NCBI GenBank assembly: GCA_910584385.1
Contig: CAJUAK010000005.1
Span: 58,870-122,869 of the forward strand
Direction of reading: 5' to 3'
Source: an uncultured Alphaproteobacteria bacterium
Lineage (GTDB): Bacteria > Pseudomonadota > Alphaproteobacteria > RF32 > CAG-239
DNA length: 64,000 bases
Part shown: in pieces, positions 2,812 to 49,639 of the stretch
Numbering within the stretch: the first letter of the stretch is position 1
Layout: each line of letters starts with the position of its first letter
Made by a program: the position numbers and the translations under genes
Notes under the pieces: model-generated
The model's input: the letters and a program-made list of their open reading frames with translations, nothing else
Database searches by the model: none
What the model was told of the DNA's origin: nothing

Positions 2812-4269
2812 ATGACAGATTTAACAAAATTGACGCTTGCTGAAGCCAGAAAAGGTCTGAAAAACAAAGAATTTAGCGCGGTTGAGCTTACAAAGGCCTA
2901 TATTGCCAAAATGGATGCCGATCGCGATTTGAATGCTTATGTCTGCGAAGTTCCGGAAAAAGCTTTGGCTCAGGCTGAAAAAAGCCAGGAAAAGATTAAT
3001 AACGGCACAGCAGGCGAGATGGAAGGCCTGCCGCTGGGCATTAAGGATTTGTTCTGCACGAAAGACATTCCGACCACGGCTTGTTCAAGCATTCTGAAAG
3101 GGTTTGTCCCTCCTTATGAGTCTACGGTTACCTCAAAGCTTAAAGAAGCCGGAGCGGTTTTCTTGGGCAAGCTGAACCTGGATGAATTTGCCATGGGCGG
3201 CAGCAATGAAACTTCTGCTTTCGGCCCGGTGGTTAATCCGTGGAAAAAAGAACGCAGATTGGTTGCCGGCGGTTCTTCCGGCGGTTCTGCGGCGGCTGTT
3301 GCGGCGGATATGTGCGCGGCAGCAACCGGAACAGATACCGGAGGGTCAATCCGCCAGCCGGCTGCATTTTGCGGCGTTACCGGCATTAAGCCGACTTATG
3401 GGCGTTGCTCCCGCTATGGCATTATTGCCTTTGCTTCTTCCCTTGACCAGGCAGGGCCGATTGCCAAAGATGTGCGCGACTGTGCGATTATGCTTAAAAC
3501 AATGTCAGGGTATGATGCCAAAGATTCAACTTCTGCGAATTGCCCTGTTCCGGATTTTGAAAAATTTCTTCATCAGGATATCCGCGGGTTAAAAATCGGT
3601 ATCCCGGCAGAATACCGTCCGGAAGGGTTAAACAGTGAAATTGCCGCCCTTTGGGATAAAGGTATTGATATGCTCAAAGCCAGAGGTGCGGAAATTGTTT
3701 CCATTTCTCTGCCGCATACCAAATATGCCCTGGCAACTTATTATATTATTGCGCCGGCGGAGGCTTCCTCAAACCTTGCGCGTTATGATGGTCTGCGTTA
3801 CGGCAACAGGATAAACGGAACGCATTTGGACGATATGTATATTAATTCCCGTACGGCAGGTTTTGGCAAAGAGGTCAAACGTCGGATTATGATTGGCACT
3901 TATGTGCTTTCCGCTGGGTACTATGACGCTTATTATCTGAAAGCGCAGAAAGTCCGCCGCCTGATAAGGGAAGATTTCTTGAAGGCCTTTGAAAAATGCG
4001 ATGTGATTTTGACGCCGACGGCGCCGACAGCCGCTTTTCCGATTGGCGACAAGTCAATGCAGGAAAACCCGATAACGATGTGGCTGAACGATATTTTCAC
4101 CGTGTCTGTCAATTTGGCGGGGCTGCCGGCAATGAGCCTTCCTGCGGGGTTGAATAAGGACGGCCTGCCTTTAGGGCTGCAGCTTATCGGCCGGTCTTTT
4201 GATGAGGAGACATTGTTTAAGGCGGCATCAGCTTTGGAAGAAGATATTAATTTTAAGGGGATGAAGTAA
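2812..4269 (+). CDS. gatA: Asp/Glu-tRNA amidotransferase subunit A (amidase signature)
   Basis: Amidase signature [13 protein letters not shown] and the Ser-cisSer-Lys context. 485 aa. Confidence 0.95.
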
Positions 4270-4270
4270 G

Positions 4271-5728
4271 ATGAGCGGCTTGATATTAGAAGGAAAAACC
4301 GGAAAGTGGGAAGTTATCTGCGGCGTGGAAATCCATTGCCAGATTATCTCGAAATCTAAGATATTTTCAGGCGCTTCTACGCATTATGGCTCTGATCCCA
4401 ATCAGAATGTGGCGTTTATTGATGCCGGCATGCCGGGAATGTTGCCGAGCCTGAATGAAGAATGTGTCCATCAGGCGGTTAAGACCGGTTTGGGATTAAA
4501 CGCGAAAATTAATAAATATTCCGAATTTTCAAGAAAAAATTATTTTTATGCCGATTTGCCGCAAGGGTATCAGATTACCCAATTCAGATATCCGATTGTC
4601 GGCGAGGGGACGGTTACGATTTCTTTGCCGGACGGCAGCACGAAAGATATCGGCATTGAGCGTATGCACATTGAGCAGGATGCCGGAAAATCCATTCATG
4701 ATATGGCGCCGGACAAGAGCTTTATTGATTTGAACCGTGCCGGCGTGGGCTTAATGGAAATTGTAACCAAGCCTGATTTTCGCGCGCCGGAAGAAGTTGG
4801 CGCTTTCTTGCGCAAGCTGCGTTCTATTTTGCGTTATCTGGAAACCTGCGACGGCAATATGGACGAAGGCTCTATGCGCTGCGACGTGAATGTTTCTGTC
4901 CGCAAATTGGGAGAAGAAGGCTTTCGTACCCGTTGCGAGATGAAAAACGTGAACTCTGTCAAATTTGTAATGCAGGCGATTGAAAATGAAGCCCGCCGCC
5001 ATGTGGAAGTTTATGAAAGCGGTGGCGAAATTGTTCAGGAAACACGGAAATTTGATGCTTTGAGCGGGCAAACCAAGCCCATGCGCAAGAAAGAATTTGC
5101 CCATGATTACCGTTATTTTCCGGAACCGGACCTTTTGCCTTTGGTTTTGGATGATGAGTATATCAACAGAATCAAGTCTGAAATGGTTGAGCTTCCCGAT
5201 GCGAAAATGGCGCGTTATGTCAAAGATTTAGGCTTAACGCCTTATGATGCTTCTGTTATTTGCGAAAATAAGGAAGTGGCTGCATTTTATGAAAAAGCGG
5301 CCAAAGGGCATGATGCGAAAAAAGTGGCAAACTGGCTGATGGGCGATTTCTTTGCAATGCTTAACGAGAAAAAGCTAGAGCTTAAAGATTCTCCGATTTC
5401 TGCCGAAAACCTGGGGCGTTTGGTTGAACTGGTAACAACCAATGTTATCAACGGCAAAACCGCCAAGGATGTTTTTGCCCTGATGGCGGAGACAGGGGAT
5501 AATCCTGAGAAAATCGTTGAGGAAAAAGGCTTGAAGCAGGTTACGGATACAGGGGCGATTGAAGCGGTTATTGATGAAGTAATTGCCGCGAACCCGGATA
5601 ATGTGGCCGCTTATCGTGCCGGCAAGACAGCCCTCATGGGTTGGTTTGTGGGGCAGGTGATGAAGGCCTCCAAAGGAAAAGCCAATCCGGGGATGGTTAA
5701 CCAGTTGTTGTCTAAAAAACTCGTTTAG
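4271..5728 (+). CDS. gatB: Asp/Glu-tRNA amidotransferase subunit B
   Basis: N-terminus [13 protein letters not shown]...MPGMLP and C-terminal GatB/YqeY tail. 485 aa. Start overlaps the gatA stop. Confidence 0.95.
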
Positions 5729-7118: not shown

Positions 7119-7880
7119 ATGTCTTTGCTTAAAAATGTTTGTGTCCCGGTTTTGTTTTCAGCAGCTCTGAGCGCTTGTACATCTGCGGTTTTTCCTGACG
7201 TTATCGAGGATGAGCAGGCCAGTGTCAGCGGCAGGATAACCGCGGAAGATTCACAGGCGGCTGCCGGAAAATCAAAAATTGTCCACCAGATGCCGAAGGA
7301 AGGCTCTGTTTTAACGGGCGATAAGCAAAATGTGTCTTATGAAGACGACGAAGAAGTAAAGCCGCTTGCAAACAAAACAGAAGAAGTTTTGGAAGACAAG
7401 CCCGTTGCCGCCAAAACTGTTCCTGTCGTTAAAGAAGAGGCGCCTAAAAAGGCTGAAGCCGAAAAGGTTGAGGAAAGGGCGCCGTCAATGGACGTTTTGA
7501 ACGAAGATGAGGTTCAGCCCAGCATTAGCTACCGTGCCGAAACGATTTATTTTGAAAACGGCAGCGCTGTTGTCGATGCTTCATATAACGCTTCGCTGCG
7601 CCGCATTGTAAAAGAAGCTAAAGCCAATAACGCAAAGGTAAGAGTTTTGGGCTATGCTTCCAGCCGGACACGCAATACGGATGCCGTTACCCATAAACTG
7701 GCTAATTTCAAAATTTCGTCCGAACGTGCCCAGAATGTTGCAAATGCATTGCGCAGAGCCGGATTAAAGGCGGATATGATTGAAGTGGAAGCCCTTTCCG
7801 ATTCCGCTCCGGTCTATCAGGAAGTTATGCCTGAAGGGGAGAGGCTGAACCGCAGGGCGGAAATTTATATCGCTTATTAA
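7119..7880 (+). CDS. OmpA-family lipoprotein (peptidoglycan-associating C-terminal domain)
   Basis: Lipobox LSAC after a signal peptide. C-terminus ETIYFENGSAVVDASYNASL...NRRAEIYIAY is OmpA_C-like. Acidic/Lys-rich linker in the middle. Confidence 0.7.
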   Translation: MSLLKNVCVPVLFSAALSACTSAVFPDVIEDEQASVSGRITAEDSQAAAGKSKIVHQMPKEGSVLTGDKQNVSYEDDEEVKPLANKTEEVLEDKPVAAKTVPVVKEEAPKKAEAEKVEERAPSMDVLNEDEVQPSISYRAETIYFENGSAVVDASYNASLRRIVKEAKANNAKVRVLGYASSRTRNTDAVTHKLANFKISSERAQNVANALRRAGLKADMIEVEALSDSAPVYQEVMPEGERLNRRAEIYIAY

Positions 7881-39837: not shown

Positions 39838-42036
39838 ATGCAGAAAAAAGAACTTTTGGCTCCGGCCGGAGATATTGAAGCAGGCTATGCCGCTTTGCAT
39901 TATGGGGCAGATGCGGTTTATCTCGGGTTGCAGCAGTTTTCGGCAAGGGCGACGGCCGTCAATTTTGATGAAACGGCACTTGACCATTTTACGGCTTATG
40001 CGCACAGCCTTGGCCGTAAGGTTTATGTTACGATTAACACGCTTATTCAGGAATGCGAGCTGGCTGATTTGCTTAAAAGCCTGGATATGTGTTCAAATTA
40101 CCATGTGGATGGCATCATTGTTCAGGATTTGGGTGTTGCCGGAATTATTAAAGAAAAATATCCGGAACTGGAACTCCATGCCAGCACGCAAATGGCTGTC
40201 CATAATAAAGAAGGCGCCTTGGCTTTGCAAAAATTCGGATTTAAACGCGTTGTTTTGGCCAGAGAGCTCTCTTTGCGCGAAATCCAAGAAATTTCTGCGC
40301 TGCCGGGTTTGGAAACCGAAGCGTTTATTCACGGAGCCTTGTGTTATTCATATAGCGGATTATGTTTGTTTTCGGCATTGGAATATGGAAAAAGCGCAAA
40401 TCGCGGGCAATGCCTTTATCCCTGCCGTTCAGAATTTGCGGGAGATGACGGCAAAGGGCATTATTTTTCTATGAAAGATATGGCGCTGCAAGGAGATATT
40501 TTGAAGATGCCGGTTACGTCCCTGAAAATAGAGGGGCGCAAGAAAAATGCGCTTTACGTGGCGGCCGTTACGGATTATTACCGGCATATTTTAGACGGAC
40601 GCGGCTGGGATGAGAAAAAAGAAGAAAACATCCGCCAGATTTTTTCCCGCCCTTGGTGCAAATTCCATTTTAACGGCAAAGATAAAAATATTACCGACCG
40701 TGATTTTGTGGGACATCGCGGATTGCCTATCGGGCAAGTTCAGCAATACACGGGAAAAAGCATCATTTTGAAAACGGCGCATGAAATTGCCCGCCATGAC
40801 GGTATACAAATTGATGTTCCGGGGAAGGAAAAGCCTTTTGGTTTTTCTTTGCTTAAGCTAAAAGTCAAAGGGAAAGACGCGTTTGAAGCCGCAGCCGGAG
40901 AAAATGTGGAAATTACCCTTCCACCCAAACACCCGGCTTTGGATTTTGGAGCCGCCGTTTATTTGTCATCTTCCAGCAAAGTTAAAGGCAGTTATGATTA
41001 TGCCAAACCACGCCTTCAAGAATTTAAGGCCCGGGAAGGGCTGGATGTTGTGGTCGATATCCGCCCAAAAGAAGTTCTGGCGCGTGCAAAGGGTGTTTCT
41101 TATTCTGTTTCAGGCGATTTTGCCCCAGCTCAAGATGTGTCTAAAACGTGTGAAGCTGTTGAAAAATCTTTTTCTAAAACCGGAGAAACGCCTTTTGAAC
41201 TTGGGCGCCTGGAAGTAAATAACCCGGGCGGGCTTTTTGTTCCGGCTTCCTTGCTGAATAATTTGCGCAGAGGCTTATATGCTGCGGTCAGCCGCGATAA
41301 AAAGCAGGCAGAGCTTCCCGTAAGCCTGCCGGTTGCCCATAAGCCGCGAAAGCCGCTAATAAAGGTTGACAAGGCAGAATATCTCTCTTTGCTGAATTTG
41401 GATGATTTTGAAGAAATTCTCTTTTTAATGGATTTGGAAACGTCTTTGGCAGATTTATCCGCAATTCCTTTTGAAAAATTAAGAATTGCGCTTCCTGCCG
41501 TATGCCGTGATACGGAGAAATGGCGCCGGCGCATAAATGAATTTGCCGCGGCTGGCATAACAAAATGGGAAATTGCCAATTATTGGGGGCTTGAGGCTTT
41601 GCCTGAAGGATGCGATATTTCTTTTGACGCGCCTTTATACATGTTTAATTCGCAAGCCGTTTTACAAGCCAAAAACATGGGCGCCAAAAGGGTATGCCTT
41701 CCGATAGAGGCTTCCAGGCAAAATTTGAGCGCCGTGGCTGAAAAATCCTGCTTGCCGGTTGTTTTCTGCATTTATCAGGATGTGCCTTTATTCACCAGTG
41801 CCGTTTGTATCCGCAATAATCCCTGTGCCTCTTGCGACAGGAAGGAAAAATGGATAAACCTCAGAAAAGACGGAAAATTTTATCAGGCTCTTTCAAAAAA
41901 TTGCCAGACGATGCTGTTTGAAAAAGAGGCGCTTGTTCGTGAACCTGATATTAATGCCGATTTTTACCGGTTAGATTTTTGCTATAAAAAATATAAGCCG
42001 GAAGAAGTCCTAGAAATTGTCAGAAGGTTCTTTTAA
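39838..42036 (+). CDS. U32 family peptidase (long form with C-terminal extension)
   Basis: U32 N-terminus ELLAPAGDIEAGYAALHYGADAVYLG...GIIVQD...HASTQM and the conserved E/C region. 732 aa. Confidence 0.8.
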   Translation: MQKKELLAPAGDIEAGYAALHYGADAVYLGLQQFSARATAVNFDETALDHFTAYAHSLGRKVYVTINTLIQECELADLLKSLDMCSNYHVDGIIVQDLGVAGIIKEKYPELELHASTQMAVHNKEGALALQKFGFKRVVLARELSLREIQEISALPGLETEAFIHGALCYSYSGLCLFSALEYGKSANRGQCLYPCRSEFAGDDGKGHYFSMKDMALQGDILKMPVTSLKIEGRKKNALYVAAVTDYYRHILDGRGWDEKKEENIRQIFSRPWCKFHFNGKDKNITDRDFVGHRGLPIGQVQQYTGKSIILKTAHEIARHDGIQIDVPGKEKPFGFSLLKLKVKGKDAFEAAAGENVEITLPPKHPALDFGAAVYLSSSSKVKGSYDYAKPRLQEFKAREGLDVVVDIRPKEVLARAKGVSYSVSGDFAPAQDVSKTCEAVEKSFSKTGETPFELGRLEVNNPGGLFVPASLLNNLRRGLYAAVSRDKKQAELPVSLPVAHKPRKPLIKVDKAEYLSLLNLDDFEEILFLMDLETSLADLSAIPFEKLRIALPAVCRDTEKWRRRINEFAAAGITKWEIANYWGLEALPEGCDISFDAPLYMFNSQAVLQAKNMGAKRVCLPIEASRQNLSAVAEKSCLPVVFCIYQDVPLFTSAVCIRNNPCASCDRKEKWINLRKDGKFYQALSKNCQTMLFEKEALVREPDINADFYRLDFCYKKYKPEEVLEIVRRFF

Positions 42037-42805: not shown

Positions 42806-43423
42806 ATGACTTACAAAGTGATATTTATTGATTGGTTTAACACGCTTAGCTCCTCGCTTTTTTATGATAACTGCGGGGAAGATGATTTGTGCGGCTATTT
42901 CAGAAAGCATACGTTCCAAGACAATGAAGAAATGCTTGAAGCATGGCTGGTCGGGAAAAAAAGCCGCGTAGATGTCGTTTCTGCTTTTGCCAGGAATAAA
43001 TCCGAACAAAAAAAGGCACTGTCTCTTTTGAAAAAAAGCTGTGAAAACATGACGTTTGACCGGGAAACCTATTTGCCGCTCATTCAAAAAATCAGAAAAA
43101 AAGGCGTTAAGGTTGTTATAGCGACAGATAATATGGATGTTTTTACAGATTATGTTGTTCCGGCATTAAAGCTCCGCAACTATTTTGATGAAATCATCTC
43201 TTCCAATATTCTCGGCTGCCAGAAAATGGATATTGAAAACGGGAAATTAATATTTTTTGACAGCTTTTTGAAAAACAATAAAATTTCCTATAGCGAAGCT
43301 TTGGTCATTGACGATAGTTTTCAAACATCTATCAGCTGTCAAAAATGCGGGTTGCCGGTTTGGCCGGTAAAAAAAGCGGAAGATGTGGAATATATTTTAA
43401 GAAAGCTTGCGGAAGAGATTTAA
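42806..43423 (+). CDS. HAD-like hydrolase family protein (motif I degenerate)
   Basis: IFIDWFNTL in place of hhhDxDGTL. Later KVVIATDN and LVIDDS resemble HAD motifs III/IV. Confidence 0.5.
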   Translation: MTYKVIFIDWFNTLSSSLFYDNCGEDDLCGYFRKHTFQDNEEMLEAWLVGKKSRVDVVSAFARNKSEQKKALSLLKKSCENMTFDRETYLPLIQKIRKKGVKVVIATDNMDVFTDYVVPALKLRNYFDEIISSNILGCQKMDIENGKLIFFDSFLKNNKISYSEALVIDDSFQTSISCQKCGLPVWPVKKAEDVEYILRKLAEEI

Positions 43424-43463
43424 TTCAACTAACATTTTCCTTATTAGATGTAAGGAGAATGAT

Positions 43464-44390
43464 ATGTTTTGGAATAAGTGGTTTGAGCCTAAGGCTTTTA
43501 ATCAGGGATATCTGCCGGAAAAAGACGGGCATAAAGTTTATTTTGCAGAATACGGAAATCCGAGAGGCTTTCCGGTTTTGGTTCTGCATGGCGGTCCGGG
43601 CGGCTGTTTCAAAGCAAAACATGTTAAAGTATTTGATTTAAAAAAATACCGGGTTATCGGGTTTGACCAAAGGGGATGCGGAAAATCGCACCCGTTGGGG
43701 CAGTGGCAAAAAAATACGGTTCAAGATACGTTGGATGATATTGACCGTTTGCTCGAACATCTTGAAATCTATGAAAAAATCATTATCCGCGGCGGTTCTT
43801 GGGGTTCTACTTTAGCACTGCTTTTTGCTGAGAGGCATCCTGAAAAGGTCAAAAAACTTTTGCTTTCTCAGATTTTTCTGGCCGATGAAGCAAGCAAAAA
43901 ATGGGAAGAGGAGGGCACGACCTGGTTTTATCCGGATATCTGGGAACAAATAAAAAGCAAAGTGCGCGGCGGTTACAGCGTTGGCGAATATTATGCGCGG
44001 CTGATTAATACGGGTGAAGCGCAAAAACAGATTAAAGCGATTTCATATTTGGGCAGCTATGAAAGAATTTTAGGAAGTTTGGATCCTAAAATAGAAAATA
44101 AAGCAATAGATGAATATATTGTTGCAAGTAACAGAATATACATAAATTATCTCGCAAACTCTTTTTATCTAAAAGAAAATCAAATTATGAAAAATATCAA
44201 AAAAATCTCTTCTGTGCCAACGCTTATTGTCCATAACCGGCTTGATTTTGTTTGCCCGCCGGAGGGGGCTTTCCGGCTGCATAAAGCGTTAGCCCAATCA
44301 CGTTTGGTTATCGTTCCGGACAAGGGGCATGTCAGCAAGAAATTATATCAGGCGATTGCTAAGGAAATAAAAAAAGAGTTGGAGAATTAG
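43464..44390 (+). CDS. pip: proline iminopeptidase (alpha/beta hydrolase)
   Basis: VLVLHGGPGG signature, GGSWGSTLAL nucleophile elbow. ATG 43464 after AAGGAG. Confidence 0.85.
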   Translation: MFWNKWFEPKAFNQGYLPEKDGHKVYFAEYGNPRGFPVLVLHGGPGGCFKAKHVKVFDLKKYRVIGFDQRGCGKSHPLGQWQKNTVQDTLDDIDRLLEHLEIYEKIIIRGGSWGSTLALLFAERHPEKVKKLLLSQIFLADEASKKWEEEGTTWFYPDIWEQIKSKVRGGYSVGEYYARLINTGEAQKQIKAISYLGSYERILGSLDPKIENKAIDEYIVASNRIYINYLANSFYLKENQIMKNIKKISSVPTLIVHNRLDFVCPPEGAFRLHKALAQSRLVIVPDKGHVSKKLYQAIAKEIKKELEN

Positions 44391-44392
44391 CA

Positions 44393-44971
44393 ATGGATTT
44401 TTATATCTTTCGCCATGGGCAAAGCACGTATAACCTGGCAGGGCGCACGCAGGGGCAGACAAATGCTTCCGTTTTGACGGATCAGGGAAAAGAGCAGGCA
44501 CGGAAAGTTGGGCAAAAGCTTGTTGGAAAAGGAATTGGGCTTTTAATTACATCTCCCTTAACAAGGGCTGTGCAAACAGTTAATTTGGCTAATGAATATC
44601 TAAAGCTTCCCATTGTGGAAGACAAGCGTTTTATTGAAGTCAATGTTGGGGAGATCGAGGGGCTTCATTATACGGAAATACAGGAAAAATTCGGAGAAAA
44701 GTACCAACAATGGCGAAGTTCGTCTCCGCTTTATGAAGATATTAAGTTTGAGGGCGGCGAAACCAAAAGACAGGTAAGAGAGCGCGTTTTTTCAGGGTTG
44801 AATGAATATGCGGAAAATAAAAGCTATGCCGCTATTGGAATATCTTCCCATGGCATTATGTTAGAGCAGGTGCTCTTATCGCTTAATCATAATAATGTTA
44901 AAGTTGAAAATGGCGCTGTTTTGCATATTGAAAATAAAAACGGGCAATGGCTGTTTAGGGAGTTGTTTTGA
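44393..44971 (+). CDS. histidine phosphatase (phosphoglycerate mutase) family protein
   Basis: IFRHGQSTYN (RHG motif) at the N-terminus and GISSHG near the C-terminus. Confidence 0.85.
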   Translation: MDFYIFRHGQSTYNLAGRTQGQTNASVLTDQGKEQARKVGQKLVGKGIGLLITSPLTRAVQTVNLANEYLKLPIVEDKRFIEVNVGEIEGLHYTEIQEKFGEKYQQWRSSSPLYEDIKFEGGETKRQVRERVFSGLNEYAENKSYAAIGISSHGIMLEQVLLSLNHNNVKVENGAVLHIENKNGQWLFRELF

Positions 44972-45207
44972 TGATAAATAATAATGATGTTTCCCAACAA
45001 GTTGAAAATGCTTATTTTATAATGCTTTCTCTTTGTCGTGAACTGTATCTGTGCGTTGGCCGTAATCCTGAAAAATCTGAGGAATATTTGGCAAAAACGG
45101 CTGCACTGAAAAAAGATATGCGCTATTTGGATAAGCCGCAGCTTATCGCAAAAGCACAACAGGTTTACGCACCACAGTTGAAAAAATTGTTAGGAAAAAA
45201 AATATGA
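44968..45207 (+). CDS. small helical protein, candidate epsilon/PezA-type antitoxin
   Basis: 79 aa. ATGA overlaps both the upstream stop and the downstream zeta-like start. Confidence 0.45.
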   Translation: MMINNNDVSQQVENAYFIMLSLCRELYLCVGRNPEKSEEYLAKTAALKKDMRYLDKPQLIAKAQQVYAPQLKKLLGKKI

Positions 45208-46106
45208 CTGATTTAAAACGTTTTGAATTAGATGAAGCACAACATCAGAAATGGTTTGAAGATGTTATTCTTCCTCAATTTGCAGAAGGGAAAGAAACTG
45301 CAAAAGTTCCAACTTTTGTTTTACTTACAGGACAGCCTGGCGCTGGAAAAACTTATTCTTCCTTCAGATATGCGCAAAGTATGGAAAGTGAGCCCATCCG
45401 TTTTGGCGCTGATGATTTAAGGCTGCTTTTGCCTTATGCAATGGATGCTATGAGAGAGGATGAGCAGAATTACCCATTTTTAACTAAAAAAGATGCCGGA
45501 TTGGCAAGGGAAAAGCTTGTTGATTATGCACTTGCTCATAAAAAGAATATTTTGGTGGAAAGCATCCTTGCTAATCCTGAAGATTGGAAAATGGGAACAT
45601 TGTTAAAAGCTAAAAAAGCAGGCTACAAGGTTGAATGCGCCGTTTTAGGCGTCCATAGGCATTTAAGCGAAGTCTCTATATTTTCCAGATATGAAGAACA
45701 AAAAGCAATTACAGGCTATGGGTTCGCCCCTACTTTGGATGTTCATGACAAAGCTTATACGCTTCTGCCGGATATAACGGGAAAAATGTTGCAAAACGGC
45801 ATTGCTGATGCTCTAAGCATTTATAACAGAGAATTTAAATGCTTTTATGACAGCAGAGTCGAAAAAGGGCAATCTCCCCAATTGGAAGTGATGAAAGCTA
45901 TTGGACGGTCAAGAAACAGCTCTCTTAATTATGATGAAATGTGCAATGTGGCAGTAAAATGGGATATGGTGCTTGAAAGTATGGCAAAACGTGGCGCAAG
46001 CAGAGATGAAATAGAAAAAGTCCAAATGTTAAAGGCGAATTTTAAGAAAGATACGGCTATTTGTTTTACTCCGGCTTATCGTTATAATTTTAAAGGAAAA
46101 GAGTAG
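45204..46106 (+). CDS. zeta-toxin family P-loop kinase
   Basis: Walker A LTGQPGAGKTY followed by FGADDLR (cf. zeta DGDxFR), ILVESIL, KKAGYKVECAVLGV and SRYEEQ, collinear with PezT/zeta. 300 aa. Confidence 0.6.
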   Translation: MTDLKRFELDEAQHQKWFEDVILPQFAEGKETAKVPTFVLLTGQPGAGKTYSSFRYAQSMESEPIRFGADDLRLLLPYAMDAMREDEQNYPFLTKKDAGLAREKLVDYALAHKKNILVESILANPEDWKMGTLLKAKKAGYKVECAVLGVHRHLSEVSIFSRYEEQKAITGYGFAPTLDVHDKAYTLLPDITGKMLQNGIADALSIYNREFKCFYDSRVEKGQSPQLEVMKAIGRSRNSSLNYDEMCNVAVKWDMVLESMAKRGASRDEIEKVQMLKANFKKDTAICFTPAYRYNFKGKE

Positions 46107-46110
46107 AATA

Positions 46111-47496
46111 ATGCTGGATAAAAATTTTACGGCAGTTTTGCTGGAAGAGGCTTTATCACAAGGCGGAGATTTTGCGGAAGTCTTTATGGAAAACAGTTTT
46201 TCCGGCAGCCTTGTTATTGGCGAAAGGCAAATCAAAGAGGCCGCATCTTCTATTGATAAAGGCGTCGGTGTAAGGGTTTGCAAAGGCGGTGAACTGCAAA
46301 GCTATGCATTTACAAACCGCTTGGATAAGGACAGTTTAATCAAAACAGCCCGCCAAGCAGCTGCCGGTATTAATGAAAAGAAACAAAATATACATTTTAA
46401 CCTGCAAGAAAATGAATTGGCCTCTCCACATATCATTTTGAAAACGCAAAAAGATATTTCAAAAATGCAAAAAGCGGACTTGCTTCGGGATGTTTCGGAA
46501 CGCATTTACGCGGCTCATCCTTCCATTATTCGGACGGATGGAAGTTATCTTGAGGAAATTCAAGAAGTTACGATTGCAAATTCAAACGGATTATGGATTA
46601 GCGACAAGAGGGAACGTACAAGATTTTCTATAAGTGCCCAAGCTCAAAAAGGCGACAGAAATGAGTCTGCCGGGGAAAATATTGGCGCTTTAAAAGGGTT
46701 TGAATTATATGACGGCTGGGACAAGGATGAATTTGCAGCACAGATTGCCGAAGCAGCCATCAGGAAGCTTGAAGCACGCAATTGTCCGAGCGGAAAAATG
46801 CCGGTGATTATCAACAACAAGTTTGGCGGGGTTATATTCCACGAAGCCTGCGGGCATGCCCTTGAAGCAACGGCTTTGGCAAAGAGGGCTTCTGTTTTTC
46901 AGGATAAGCTCGGACAGCAGATTGCTTCTCCGCTTGTGTCTGCCGTTGATGACGGAACAATTCCGAATGCCTGGGGAAGCCAGACAATCGATGACGAAGG
47001 ATTGAAAACACAGCGCAACCTGTTGATAAAAGACGGGATTCTGACGGGCTACCTGATTGATTCTTTTAACGGGAAACGGCTCGGATTGGCGCCAACCGGC
47101 AGTTGCCGCCGGGAAAGCTACCGTTATGCGCCGACATCGAGAATGAATAACACTTTTATCTTAAACGGAACTTCTACATTGGAAGAAATGATTGCCGCAA
47201 CAGATTATGGCCTGTTTGCTTCTAAAATGTCCGGCGGTTCGGTTAACCCGGCAAGCGGCGATTTTAACTTTTCTGTCGATGAGGCTTATATTATCGAAAA
47301 AGGCAAAATAAAACAACAGGTTAAAGGAGCTAAGCTTATTGGCAAAGGAAGCGAGATCCTGAAAAATATTGATATGGTTGGCAACAATTTAGGGCTTGCC
47401 TGCGGTATGTGCGGTTCTGTTTCGGGATCTGTTCCTACAACTGTCGGCCAGCCGGCAATCAGAGTTAGCGAAATTTTAGTCGGAGGTCAAGAATAA
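46111..47496 (+). CDS. tldD: metalloprotease TldD
   Basis: HEACGHALEA (HExxxGH), GGSVNPASGDF. 461 aa. Confidence 0.9.
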   Translation: MLDKNFTAVLLEEALSQGGDFAEVFMENSFSGSLVIGERQIKEAASSIDKGVGVRVCKGGELQSYAFTNRLDKDSLIKTARQAAAGINEKKQNIHFNLQENELASPHIILKTQKDISKMQKADLLRDVSERIYAAHPSIIRTDGSYLEEIQEVTIANSNGLWISDKRERTRFSISAQAQKGDRNESAGENIGALKGFELYDGWDKDEFAAQIAEAAIRKLEARNCPSGKMPVIINNKFGGVIFHEACGHALEATALAKRASVFQDKLGQQIASPLVSAVDDGTIPNAWGSQTIDDEGLKTQRNLLIKDGILTGYLIDSFNGKRLGLAPTGSCRRESYRYAPTSRMNNTFILNGTSTLEEMIAATDYGLFASKMSGGSVNPASGDFNFSVDEAYIIEKGKIKQQVKGAKLIGKGSEILKNIDMVGNNLGLACGMCGSVSGSVPTTVGQPAIRVSEILVGGQE

Positions 47497-48818
47497 TGCT
47501 TGCTGACGAGTTTATTGAAAAATTGTATGCGGCTTGTAAAAGTGAAAATATTGGCAAGTTTCAAATCAAATATTCATTTTCTGCCGAAGAATTTTTAAAT
47601 GTGTTTGACGGGCAGATTTCTTCGCGTGAAAATTCTCAAGAGCAGCTTTACCTTCTTGAAATATCTAAAAACGGGAAAGTCGGGCGTTTTGGCATTAGCT
47701 CTCCCGATGAAGGCGATATTCCTTTTATAATCTCTCAGGCAATGGAAAATGCATCGCTTATTGATGATGCCGATGAAAACTTTTTCTATGACGGGAAGGG
47801 GGAATATCCTAGGGTTTTGCCTTATGCGCCCTTGGCAGATAAGCTTAACAGCCTGAATAAAGAAGATTTTTTGCTTGCCGCAGAAAAACGCGCTTATCAG
47901 AATCCTTTAATTGACAAGGTTATCCGCTGCTCTTACAGCAGAAATTATGGGCGGTCGTCCATTTGTAATTCTTTAGGGCTAAAACAAAGCAAAGATTTTG
48001 ATTCTGCAAGTGCAGGCATATATTTATCGGCTAAAAAAGGCGATGTCGTCAAGACAGCCGGTGAATATGTTTTCTTTGACAAAGCAGAAGACTTTTCTGT
48101 TGAAAACTTTGTGGATAAAGCTGTTGAAAAAGCTGTGAAAAGATTAGAGACAATTAATAAAACTATTGAAAATCAATATGTTGTTTTGTCTCCTCGCGCA
48201 TTTTCCAGCTTGCTTCCCAAAATTGCATCTTTATTTTCTGCTAAAGCTGTTCAGGATAAAAAAAGCCGTTTATGCGGCAAATTAGGGCAAAAAATAGCGG
48301 CAGATAATGTTACTATTATCGACAATCCCTTGTTGGAAAAAGGCTTTGGAACAGCTGCCTATGACAGCGAAGGCATTCCGACCATATATAAAGAAGTTAT
48401 AAAAAACGGCATATTGCAAACGTATCTTTATAATCTGAAAACAGCTCATAAAGACGGTGTCAAATCTACAGGAAATGCTTCAGGAACAGGGATTGGCGTT
48501 GGAAATTTTTATCTTAAGCCTGGAGAAGCCAGCCAGCAAGCATTGTTAGACAAGGCGGGAAATTCTATTTGGATTGAAAGCTTAAACGGATTGCATGCCG
48601 GGTTTGATATTGTTTCAGGCGATTTTTCTTTTGGTGCAGAAGGTTTTGAGATAAGCCGGGGAAAAATCGGCGCAGCATTGGAACAATTTACAATTGCCGG
48701 CAATATTTATCAATTGCTGACGGATATTGTTATGGCTGGGGATGATTTAGAATTTTATGGTTCAAAATTTGGTTCACCATCTGTTTTAGTCAAAGGGTTA
48801 AAGGTTTCGGGAGAGTAA
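47496..48818 (+). CDS. pmbA: metalloprotease TldE/PmbA
   Basis: PmbA_TldD fold (GFDIVSGDFSFGAEGFEI). TAATG overlap with tldD. Confidence 0.85.
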   Translation: MLADEFIEKLYAACKSENIGKFQIKYSFSAEEFLNVFDGQISSRENSQEQLYLLEISKNGKVGRFGISSPDEGDIPFIISQAMENASLIDDADENFFYDGKGEYPRVLPYAPLADKLNSLNKEDFLLAAEKRAYQNPLIDKVIRCSYSRNYGRSSICNSLGLKQSKDFDSASAGIYLSAKKGDVVKTAGEYVFFDKAEDFSVENFVDKAVEKAVKRLETINKTIENQYVVLSPRAFSSLLPKIASLFSAKAVQDKKSRLCGKLGQKIAADNVTIIDNPLLEKGFGTAAYDSEGIPTIYKEVIKNGILQTYLYNLKTAHKDGVKSTGNASGTGIGVGNFYLKPGEASQQALLDKAGNSIWIESLNGLHAGFDIVSGDFSFGAEGFEISRGKIGAALEQFTIAGNIYQLLTDIVMAGDDLEFYGSKFGSPSVLVKGLKVSGE

Positions 48819-49108
48819 ATGGGCTCTCAGAACGCGCTCAGTGTTGTTTGCCATATAAATTCAGGCTGAGCGCTTTCTAAATGGCCGAAATCAGCTTATT
48901 AATTTTATTCGTTTTGCGAATATTATCTATAATATATATTATGCGACAAAAGTATATTATCACACAGGGCACTTCTTCTCTATGCTATTCAAGGGCTAAT
49001 GCGCTGTCCGCCTTTGTTTTCTTCTTAAAATCATGGTGCGCTTATAATTTTACGCCATTATAAAATATGACTTGCGACAGGATTGAATTTAATCTGTCAA
49101 TTTTGTTT

Positions 49109-49639
49109 CTAATCTTCTCTCGCAATATATTTAGGCGGTATAATTCCGCCCTTGATGACAAGCAAATAATATGGAACAACCGTAAATCTCAAGCCTAATT
49201 TTTCATCGCATGCTGACCAATCGACCGGAAATGTGCCTATTTCATCAACAGAATTTAACTTTACCAAGATTTCATCGCAATTTTGCAGTAAGTCCTTATC
49301 TAAATCTGGTTTGAGTGCCGGTGAAATATAAACGGCTTCAATCAGCCCGTCCCTTTGCAAGGCGTCTACATCTATTGAAAATAAATCGGCATTTTCAATA
49401 AAAGGCTTGAACATATTTATACTTTTTTCAGTCCATTTTATCGGCTCTGAAAATCCCCGAATGGCCCGACTGCGCCCTTCGAAGCAGTTTTCCATCCATT
49501 CAACTATTTTTTCATGTGTCGTTTCGCTGCCGGTTCTTTTATAATAATAACGTAAATCAGCTTGGGGATTGCATGCAAATGACAAGATGCCTTCCTGTAA
49601 AGCGGTATTTCCCTTTGATATGTAATGGTAAAGCTTCAT
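49109..49639 (-). CDS. hypothetical protein (176 aa, no recognisable domain)
   Basis: Long ORF with AGGAAG RBS. Flanked by AT-rich noncoding DNA on both sides. Confidence 0.5.
   Translation of the reverse strand: MKLYHYISKGNTALQEGILSFACNPQADLRYYYKRTGSETTHEKIVEWMENCFEGRSRAIRGFSEPIKWTEKSINMFKPFIENADLFSIDVDALQRDGLIEAVYISPALKPDLDKDLLQNCDEILVKLNSVDEIGTFPVDWSACDEKLGLRFTVVPYYLLVIKGGIIPPKYIARED

Follow-up and report, generated by a model that had tools for sequence, protein, structure and literature searches.

The locus described here raises the question of what a zeta-toxin-like kinase does between a histidine phosphatase gene and the genes for the TldD and TldE metalloproteases, and which of these neighbors belong together. 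It is part of a 64-kb stretch of alphaproteobacterial DNA (hereafter the window), in which seven co-oriented open reading frames (ORFs), all on the plus strand, run from position 42806 to position 48818. A preliminary description of this DNA had treated the run as a single seven-gene unit built around an epsilon/zeta (PezAT-like) toxin-antitoxin (TA) pair. All seven ORFs are present where that description had placed them, and their assignments (HAD, hydrolase, histidine phosphatase, zeta kinase, TldD and TldE) held in Pfam and NCBIfam scans (Table 1). The unit that is conserved among relatives, however, comprises three genes rather than seven: the histidine phosphatase (HisP), a small helical protein and the kinase.

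On a metagenome contig in ENA, an identical sequence was found. The proteins of the window were compared with about 45 related loci, including 37 alphaproteobacterial species loci; the reference contigs represent one genome per species. Relatives of the kinase are found in metagenome-assembled genomes (MAGs) labelled uncultured Alphaproteobacteria or Rhodospirillales, obtained from human, ruminant and rabbit gut samples. HisP directly adjoins the kinase in all 35 informative loci of the 37; L019 and L032 are cut by contig ends and are uninformative. Three further loci (L056, L057 and L059) likewise show HisP adjoining the kinase. The juxtaposition of a kinase and a phosphatase, to which the preliminary description had drawn attention, is kept in every informative relative.

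Two gene orders were found, HisP-small-kinase and small-kinase-HisP, each translationally coupled. In arrangement A (24 of the 37 loci), a divergent SIR2 gene is followed by the hydrolase, HisP, small and kinase genes, within syntenic surroundings comprising a U32 peptidase gene upstream and HD_3, ABC transporter and rpsD genes downstream. The other arrangements are referred to as B and C. In arrangement B (9/37) the order is small-kinase-HisP, the kinase stop codon overlaps the HisP start, and neither hydrolase nor SIR2 gene lies nearby. The order HisP-small-kinase recurs in other contexts in two of the 37 loci (L022 and L024). The small gene and the kinase gene overlap, or are separated by no more than 11 nt, in nearly all orthologous loci. 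Altogether, the trio occupies at least six unrelated chromosomal contexts: hydrolase/SIR2; yidC-engB; a polysaccharide pyruvyl transferase gene with dsbD; a serine dehydratase gene with that of a PMT_2 glycosyltransferase; accA-lexA; and a Na/H exchanger gene. No integrases or transposases were seen in the flanks of the compared trio loci. With the flanks and the other operon genes varying among loci, the conserved unit is made up of HisP, the small protein and the kinase.

A recurrent fourth gene was considered and discarded: none of the unannotated genes beside the trio in the non-A arrangements (B and C) is a recurring one. A 285-aa ORF without a family match lies between engB and the small gene in L021 (5865-6722); it is found in L021 only and not in its close relative L023. 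This insertion illustrates how variable the immediate flanks of the trio are.

The HisP tree and the kinase tree are broadly congruent, with three clades common to both. For moderately diverged pairs, dN/dS values range from 0.02 to 0.09 for HisP, from 0.03 to 0.13 for the kinase and from 0.04 to 0.15 for the small gene; SIR2 and the hydrolase give values in a similar range, and conservation of the kinase often exceeds that of the hydrolase. All three genes are under strong purifying selection, and the small ORF, in view of its dN/dS, is a real, constrained gene. The trio is vertically inherited within a clade of uncultured gut and rumen Alphaproteobacteria. The preliminary description had offered, as an alternative to a toxin module, that the zeta-like enzyme has been recruited to a housekeeping role, and had named as a refuting finding an operon that is syntenic in the housekeeping genome of related taxa and has a known function. 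The three-gene core largely shows the first of these, synteny in related taxa, which favors the alternative of recruitment to a resident role.

The family identity of the kinase is supported by both profile and fold. Its sequence matches the PF06414 hidden Markov model at 2e-30 (106.1 bits; gathering score 22.3) over profile positions 12 to 198 of 199, and contains the motifs LTGQPGAGKT, FGADDLR, VESIL and SRYEEQ that had been read from it earlier. Lack of a PF06414 match, the other finding that the preliminary description had named as refuting it, is thereby excluded. In sequence comparison the kinase matches PezT at 2e-16 and zeta at 5e-7. An AlphaFold2 (AF2) model built from 22 sequences (pLDDT 92.9) retrieved with Foldseek the zeta structures 1GVN and 3Q8X and the PezT structure 2P5T, with E values of 1e-16 to 1e-13, template modeling (TM) scores of 0.75-0.87 and 252-283 aligned columns. 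Agreement with AvrRxo1 or gonococcal zeta1 is much poorer (TM 0.4-0.53). An exhaustive profile search yielded 3073 relatives, of which only 8 representatives (50% clustering, at least 282 bits) form the core family. Below them come tandem-zeta proteins and proteins in which a zeta domain is joined to an LPD7 or DUF3991-Toprim module typical of conjugative elements; the best plasmid matches are 28-31% identical, and the two that were inspected, H1 and H3, adjoin relaxase, topoisomerase and helicase genes.

To compare residues, the top 150 representatives (8 core and 142 others) were aligned with zeta and PezT. Common to all are G46, G48, K49, D70, R73, D97, R162, E164, H181, R209, R237 and R263, with position 119 always Glu or Asp. 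The Walker A motif (GxxGxGK[TS]), the catalytic Asp (D70, equivalent to zeta D67) and the equivalents of zeta E116 (position 119) and R158 (R162) are therefore kept, as these are among the shared positions. Other positions separate the core from the rest. Position 121 (zeta T118) is Ile in 8 of 8 core sequences as against Thr in 127 of the 142 others; position 123 (zeta R120) is never basic in the core as against Arg or Lys in 112 others; position 174 (zeta R171) is Phe in 7 of 8 as against Arg in 126. Conversely, position 95 is Lys and position 102 Arg throughout the core, where the others mostly have D or H and V, T or A, respectively. The kinase of the window has no GTXR motif at S120-I121-L122-A123 and no equivalent of R171 (F174).

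In zeta, D67 is the catalytic base, and T118 and R120 touch the phosphates of UDP; the T118V variant of PezT is non-toxic (PMC3062530). The GTXR motif (zeta G117-T121) is needed for binding of UDP-N-acetylglucosamine (UDP-GlcNAc, also UNAG), and R158 has a part in catalysis as well as in binding the antitoxin (PMC6362051). Zeta cannot do without D67, E116, R158 and R171, the last being a nucleotide-site arginine, either for toxicity or for ATPase activity (PMC6356619). The kinase family keeps three of these four residues, plus the fold, and is predicted to be catalytically competent. The phosphate-binding side of its acceptor pocket appears to have been rebuilt, with two new basic residues (K95 and R102) placed on another wall. 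Its substrate is probably something other than UDP-GlcNAc, or UDP-GlcNAc bound in a different pose; in view of the selection data, we infer altered specificity rather than decay. Of the zeta kinase described earlier, the zeta/PezT fold and the catalytic core stand, but the UDP-GlcNAc-binding residues are not conserved.

Orthologues of the small protein, drawn from the compared loci, are 75-90 aa long, and 26 aligned sequences share the pattern ExANF[VI]xLSLYREY...D[ML]xYLDK...YxPxL. A single-sequence AF2 model (pLDDT 92) has helices at residues 4-31, 33-52 and 55-75. No DNA-binding or helix-turn-helix (HTH) domain was matched in the 78-aa protein by Pfam, and no small gene for an omega-like repressor is conserved in the compared loci. 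The protein is like epsilon in being small and helical and in being encoded upstream of the kinase and coupled to it; membership of the epsilon family is not detectable. Of the epsilon/zeta pair proposed earlier, what remains is a zeta/PezT-family kinase with a coupled small helical protein upstream, but not the homology of that protein to epsilon or PezA.

HisP carries the RHG motif (R7-H8-G9), R58 and, within SSHG, the second catalytic histidine H153, as read from its sequence. Its nearest solved relatives are the PspA phosphoserine phosphatase 4IJ5 (1e-15) and the broad-specificity PhoE (1EBB/1H2E). It reaches no NCBIfam equivalog cutoff, the best scores being 95 bits for PspA (cutoff 350) and 89 bits for CobC (cutoff 163). 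Within branch 1 of the histidine phosphatases, enzymes of the PhoE/PspA type have small molecules as substrates. HisP is best described as a generic small-molecule phosphatase.

The company of a P-loop kinase and a phosphatase brings to mind RNA or DNA end healing, in which the kinase would act on 5'-OH ends and the phosphatase on 3' or 2',3'-cyclic phosphates. Such pairing is typical of end-healing enzymes, and Pnkp, mammalian PNKP and PSTK do appear among distant P-loop kinase matches of the model. These matches are weak, however (TM 0.3-0.4, as against 0.75-0.87 for zeta and PezT), the small-molecule preference of PhoE/PspA-type phosphatases speaks against nucleic acid ends, and no ligase or RtcB gene is conserved near the trio. 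We regard an end-healing role as very improbable.

A reverse survey made from the HisP side revealed HisP orthologues, at 51-57% identity, without the kinase. HisP stands alone in four lineages, two of which represent clean empty sites within otherwise syntenic flanks. In the first, L051/L052 fill the exact slot of arrangement A, with about 325 nt of non-coding DNA after HisP; L051 keeps the hydrolase and HisP, and no remnants of the small gene or the kinase were found at its empty site. In the second, L048/L049 are syntenic with L024 (HisP 70% identical), and only L024 has the small and kinase genes, between HisP and a flavin reductase gene. In L050 and L060 HisP is alone in other contexts. 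L061, syntenic with the full-trio locus L059, has the kinase cleanly deleted, with no remnants detected, and an intact orphan small gene with all family motifs after HisP (4076-4342). Conversely, L043 (2094-3682) has a kinase of 337 aa, with slightly extended ends, that is apparently intact, with all catalytic and family-specific residues in place, and that meets HisP in an ATGA junction; upstream of it lies a terminator-like hairpin instead of a small gene. The small gene and the kinase gene are gained and lost together, with one orphan of each kind (the small gene of L061 and the kinase of L043). A kinase without adjacent HisP was not found among the informative alphaproteobacterial loci. 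As HisP occurs without the kinase and the kinase is never seen without HisP, the phosphatase is the hub of the trio: the kinase depends on HisP, or is merely retained beside it, and not the reverse.

Two further loci were noted in passing. In L045 (6998-7781) the kinase frame is broken, the ORF ending at 7390 and the match resuming in another frame; the close relative L034 is intact, and the gene is either a pseudogene with a frameshift or wrongly assembled in this MAG. The sole non-alphaproteobacterial match, in a Nocardia sp. (L047, 6672-8011), is a 349-aa zeta-family protein of 26% identity preceded by an overlapping 97-aa ORF, a plain two-gene layout with no phosphatase detected nearby.

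This distribution bears on the view that the small protein and the kinase are an ordinary type II epsilon/zeta-like TA pair, hitch-hiking since its ancestral entry beside an unrelated housekeeping phosphatase. The pair behaves as a presence/absence unit in syntenic flanks (compare L051 to L006, and L024 to L048), HisP orthologues exist alone, and the orphan small gene of L061 has outlasted the kinase, as expected if loss begins with the toxin. Outside the family, the closest relatives are proteins with zeta domains from conjugative plasmids, and the distant Nocardia relative has only the two genes. Yet HisP changes side of the pair with strand and translational coupling kept, and the trio stays intact while both flanks change repeatedly, which is hard to reconcile with passive hitch-hiking. 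The replacement of residues essential to classical zeta toxicity, a small protein without a DNA-binding domain, the lack of an omega-like repressor, vertical inheritance with selection as strong as on the neighboring genes, and the retention in L043 of kinase and HisP but not of the small gene all speak against it as well. On balance we consider passive hitch-hiking unlikely, though worth keeping in mind.

Some of the same observations fit a kinase that descends from a zeta toxin but is itself non-toxic and serves metabolism or salvage, with HisP acting on different intermediates of the same pathway and the small protein serving as a regulatory or stabilizing subunit. Strong purifying selection and vertical inheritance extend across the whole clade, the acceptor pocket is remodelled with the new invariant residues K95 and R102, L043 tolerates a kinase without the small gene, and the locus lies among housekeeping genes and PADLOC defense-system models matched none of nine proteins. 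However, no further enzyme of a pathway accompanies the trio consistently, the kinase is missing altogether from several related lineages, and the overlapping small gene upstream fits an epsilon/zeta layout. A kinase and a phosphatase alone make a cycle, not a pathway. A purely metabolic role appears distinctly unlikely.

The reading that we tentatively prefer, without going so far as to call it probable, is that the trio combines a non-canonical epsilon/zeta-like pair with a phosphatase to which it is coupled in function and which counters the kinase. The small protein, made just ahead of the kinase, would act in the manner of epsilon as a stoichiometric inhibitor. The kinase, whose toxicity is presumed, would phosphorylate a small, probably anionic metabolite other than UDP-GlcNAc in its canonical pose. 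HisP would remove the phosphate installed by the kinase, the two enzymes sharing a substrate, or otherwise offset its effect. Under this scheme the trio would be a reversible, buffered switch by which kinase and phosphatase control a metabolite pool, and not a plasmid-addiction module. The cycle that a kinase and a phosphatase form without an intermediate enzyme makes sense only if it is regulated. A more specific version, in which the trio is a tripartite form of epsilon/zeta with a kinase of new specificity checked by both a non-homologous inhibitor and a dedicated product-hydrolyzing HisP, is conceivable but somewhat doubtful.

Several points weigh against the preferred reading. The anatomy of the trio, its conservation, linkage and selection, and the residue pattern of the kinase are observed; each functional step of the scheme is inferred from them. 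The small protein aligns with epsilon (a sequence identical to 1GVN_A) at an hhalign probability of 0.05%, and the epsilon/PezA kinship proposed for it in the preliminary description found no backing elsewhere: there was no Pfam or NCBIfam match, a PDB profile search gave no antitoxin, and Foldseek with the single-sequence model gave no significant match, epsilon not being among the top 50 listed. The apparently intact kinase of L043, in a locus without a cis small gene, weakens the case for kinase toxicity or for an antidote role of the small protein. Loss of R171 could reflect an attenuated enzyme rather than a new specificity. Because HisP orthologues exist without the kinase, HisP has, or had, a housekeeping role of its own, and the adjacency could partly reflect operon hitch-hiking. 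None of ten longer relatives of the kinase is a fusion with HisP (His_Phos_1); they carry tandem zeta domains or are polyvalent proteins of conjugative elements. Finally, the insertions and deletions seen in arrangement A adjoin the putative dif site described below, in a region expected to be plastic.

Two known systems provide functional analogies. In PFK-2/FBPase-2, a P-loop kinase is combined with a His_Phos_1 phosphatase that reverses its reaction, and the pair sets the level of a regulatory metabolite. PFKFB kinase domains are among the distant fold matches of the trio kinase; however, the two activities of PFK-2/FBPase-2 are fused in one polypeptide, while the trio has separate genes, a kinase domain of another family with no PF01591 match, and no fusion among the ten longer relatives of its kinase. 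In DarTG, the antitoxin enzymatically reverses the modification made by the toxin, ADP-ribosylation of DNA. The likeness lies in an enzyme encoded beside a toxin and undoing its product; the chemistry and the protein families are unrelated, and the trio has an extra small protein.

Among zeta systems proper, the streptococcal epsilon/zeta pair of pSM19035 and PezAT share with the trio the full-length kinase fold, the Walker A motif, the catalytic Asp and the E116 and R158 equivalents, as well as a small helical protein encoded just upstream with overlapping stop and start codons. The trio differs from them in that GTXR and R171 are replaced, the small protein is without HTH and shows no detectable relationship to either epsilon or PezA, and there is no omega repressor; it is also chromosomal, vertically inherited, strongly selected and obligately linked to HisP, a kind of partner not known from described epsilon/zeta systems. 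Another zeta system is the non-canonical PezAT of Mycobacterium tuberculosis, Rv0366c-Rv0367c, in which nucleotide-binding and catalytic residues are kept and those for UNAG are gone; the authors proposed another substrate for Rv0366c, which is still bacteriostatic (PMC6362051). Rv0366c offers a precedent for a zeta homologue that arrests growth without the UNAG residues. Unlike the trio, this system has a shorter toxin, a ribbon-helix-helix DNA-binding antitoxin and no phosphatase partner, and belongs to another phylum; no close sequence relation was found.

AvrRxo1-Arc1, whose toxin is an NAD 3'-kinase, and gonococcal epsilon1/zeta1 are further zeta-superfamily kinases with altered substrates and a small inhibitor (PMC5087710, PMC5923241). 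Gonococcal zeta1 uses several UDP-sugars and a different hydroxyl. Apart from their poorer fold agreement (TM 0.4-0.53), these two differ from the trio in being a secreted effector and plasmid-borne, respectively, and in lacking a linked phosphatase. The gonococcal study recorded an unexplained loss of phosphorylated product in vitro, with no phosphatase identified. UDP-GlcNAc-3-phosphate, which zeta toxins produce, is considered a dead-end product that no known route removes (PMC6356619). The literature searched held no paper linking zeta toxins with a histidine phosphatase or phosphoglycerate mutase, and phosphatases are not mentioned in a review of the PezAT family from 2023.

Zeta toxins are known mainly from examples on plasmids and pathogenicity islands, and the role of chromosomal copies is debated. 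New here is a chromosomal, clade-wide family of zeta/PezT-fold kinases without GTXR and R171, with a non-homologous small partner and an obligate phosphatase neighbor. If the tripartite version described above is true, HisP would be the first case of an enzyme that serves a zeta-type toxin as antidote or reset, and the trio would represent a toxin turned into a reversible metabolic switch that a clade of gut Alphaproteobacteria keeps for its own physiology. The trio is a concrete system for asking whether zeta kinases can regulate reversibly rather than kill, and what else this fold phosphorylates.

The remaining genes of the run are neighbors of the trio, not components. The link to TldD/E emphasized in the preliminary description did not survive comparison: among the approximately 45 loci, tldDE follow the kinase only in the window (L001), L011 and L016. 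These three group as one subclade in the kinase tree, as would fit a single event in which tldDE were inserted between kinase and dif. No TldD/E gene lies within 7 kb of the kinase in the other loci, including those of species with 57-59% kinase identity. With tldDE confined to three loci, there is no comparative evidence for a TldD/E-dependent module for peptide processing or antitoxin degradation. The HAD gene is found only in the window and has no counterpart in any related locus, and the alpha/beta-hydrolase gene, absent from arrangements B and C, belongs to arrangement A only; neither can be retained as a member of the unit. The hydrolase scores just under the TIGR01249 cutoff. On its own account, the HAD-like protein has D-W-F in place of D-x-D as motif I and is without the second Asp expected of HAD phosphatases.

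These data also bear on the phospho-dependent toxin or peptide-processing module originally envisaged, which would span all seven genes, HAD and hydrolase included, with TldD/E processing a peptide or degrading the small antitoxin. TldD/E are known to degrade CcdA and to mature microcin B17, and the layout is suggestive: tldD starts 4 nt after the kinase stop codon, tldE overlaps tldD, and the arrangement is equally tight in L011 and L016. Against this stand the restriction of tldDE to one subclade, their absence near the kinase elsewhere and the presence of the HAD gene in the window only; moreover, neither a precursor peptide nor McbBCD-like modification enzymes were found among the operon ORFs or their Pfam/NCBIfam matches. 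A seven-gene module appears extremely improbable. The case illustrates that a tight operon in a single genome, here a kinase gene followed by tldDE, can be a recent accident that dissolves with comparative data.

Table 1. Genes of the seven-ORF run and the adjacent putative dif site in the window.
Feature	Coordinates	Strand	Match or remark
HAD-like hydrolase	42806-43423	+	HAD_2 4e-6
Prolyl-aminopeptidase-like alpha/beta-hydrolase	43464-44390	+	Abhydrolase_1 9e-25; TIGR01249 228 bits, cutoff 259.75
Histidine phosphatase (HisP), PhoE/PspA-like, 192 aa	44393-44971	+	His_Phos_1 (PF00300) 3e-39
Small three-helix protein, 78 aa, positional analogue of epsilon antitoxin	44971-45207	+	conserved orthologues, no family match
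Zeta/PezT-fold P-loop kinase, 300 aa, predicted remodelled acceptor pocket	45204-46106	+	PF06414 2e-30
TldD metalloprotease	46111-47496	+	PmbA_TldD domains; NF008006 TldD 327 bits
TldE/PmbA metalloprotease	47496-48818	+	PmbA_TldD_3rd 3e-65
Putative dif site	48922-48949	-	19/28 identity to E. coli dif

Some details of the junctions required correction. The small gene, given earlier as encoding 79 aa from 44968, is real, but its likeliest start is the ATG at 44971, also chosen by the gene caller on the source contig, which yields 78 aa. Because the gene most likely begins there, the HisP/small junction is TGATG, with a 1-nt overlap, and not ATGA; the ATGA junction between small gene and kinase and the TAATG junction between tldD and tldE are as described. 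The spacers are 2 nt between hydrolase and HisP genes, 4 nt between kinase and tldD, and 40 nt between HAD and hydrolase genes. The last contains a hairpin (43433-43461) with a 12-bp stem that takes in AAGGAG, the ribosome-binding site for the hydrolase; this hairpin could either terminate transcription or mask translation. Further upstream, the convergent 3' ends of the U32 peptidase ORF (plus strand) and the SIR2 deacetylase gene (minus strand) overlap by 27 nt (42010-42036).

About 100 nt past tldE, the minus strand reads TTGTCGCATAA-TATATA-TTATAGATAAT, a putative dif (XerC/D) site for the resolution of chromosome dimers; the dif site of Escherichia coli is GGTGCGCATAA-TGTATA-TTATGTTAAAT, and the central hexamer of the putative site is that of Bacillus subtilis dif (PMC3025954). 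The site is present in a single copy in the window and coincides with a change in the sign of GC skew, from +0.14 to -0.11, at about 49 kb. As the putative dif sits at this change, the window spans the replication terminus. A 25-nt block is conserved just past the last operon gene, and its 16-mer core was found in 24 arrangement-A loci (L001-L005, L008, L010-L014, L016-L018, L025-L027, L029, L031, L036, L041, L051, L057 and L059). Rfam gave no meaningful match to this conserved intergenic element, and the ideas that it was a promoter or a small ORF were dropped once it was recognized as a putative dif site. No other unit lies between the operon and the replication terminus in arrangement A. 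In loci of arrangements B and C no dif site was found within 7 kb; the trio therefore persists at a distance from the terminus as well.

The genes that vary in arrangement A (small and kinase genes, tldDE and orf176) all lie on the dif-proximal side. The last of these, a 176-aa ORF on the minus strand (49109-49639) without a Pfam or PADLOC match, is present in the window only, between dif and a conserved ORF for a 112-aa membrane protein. In L061 the dif site is inverted and lies beside the kinase deletion.

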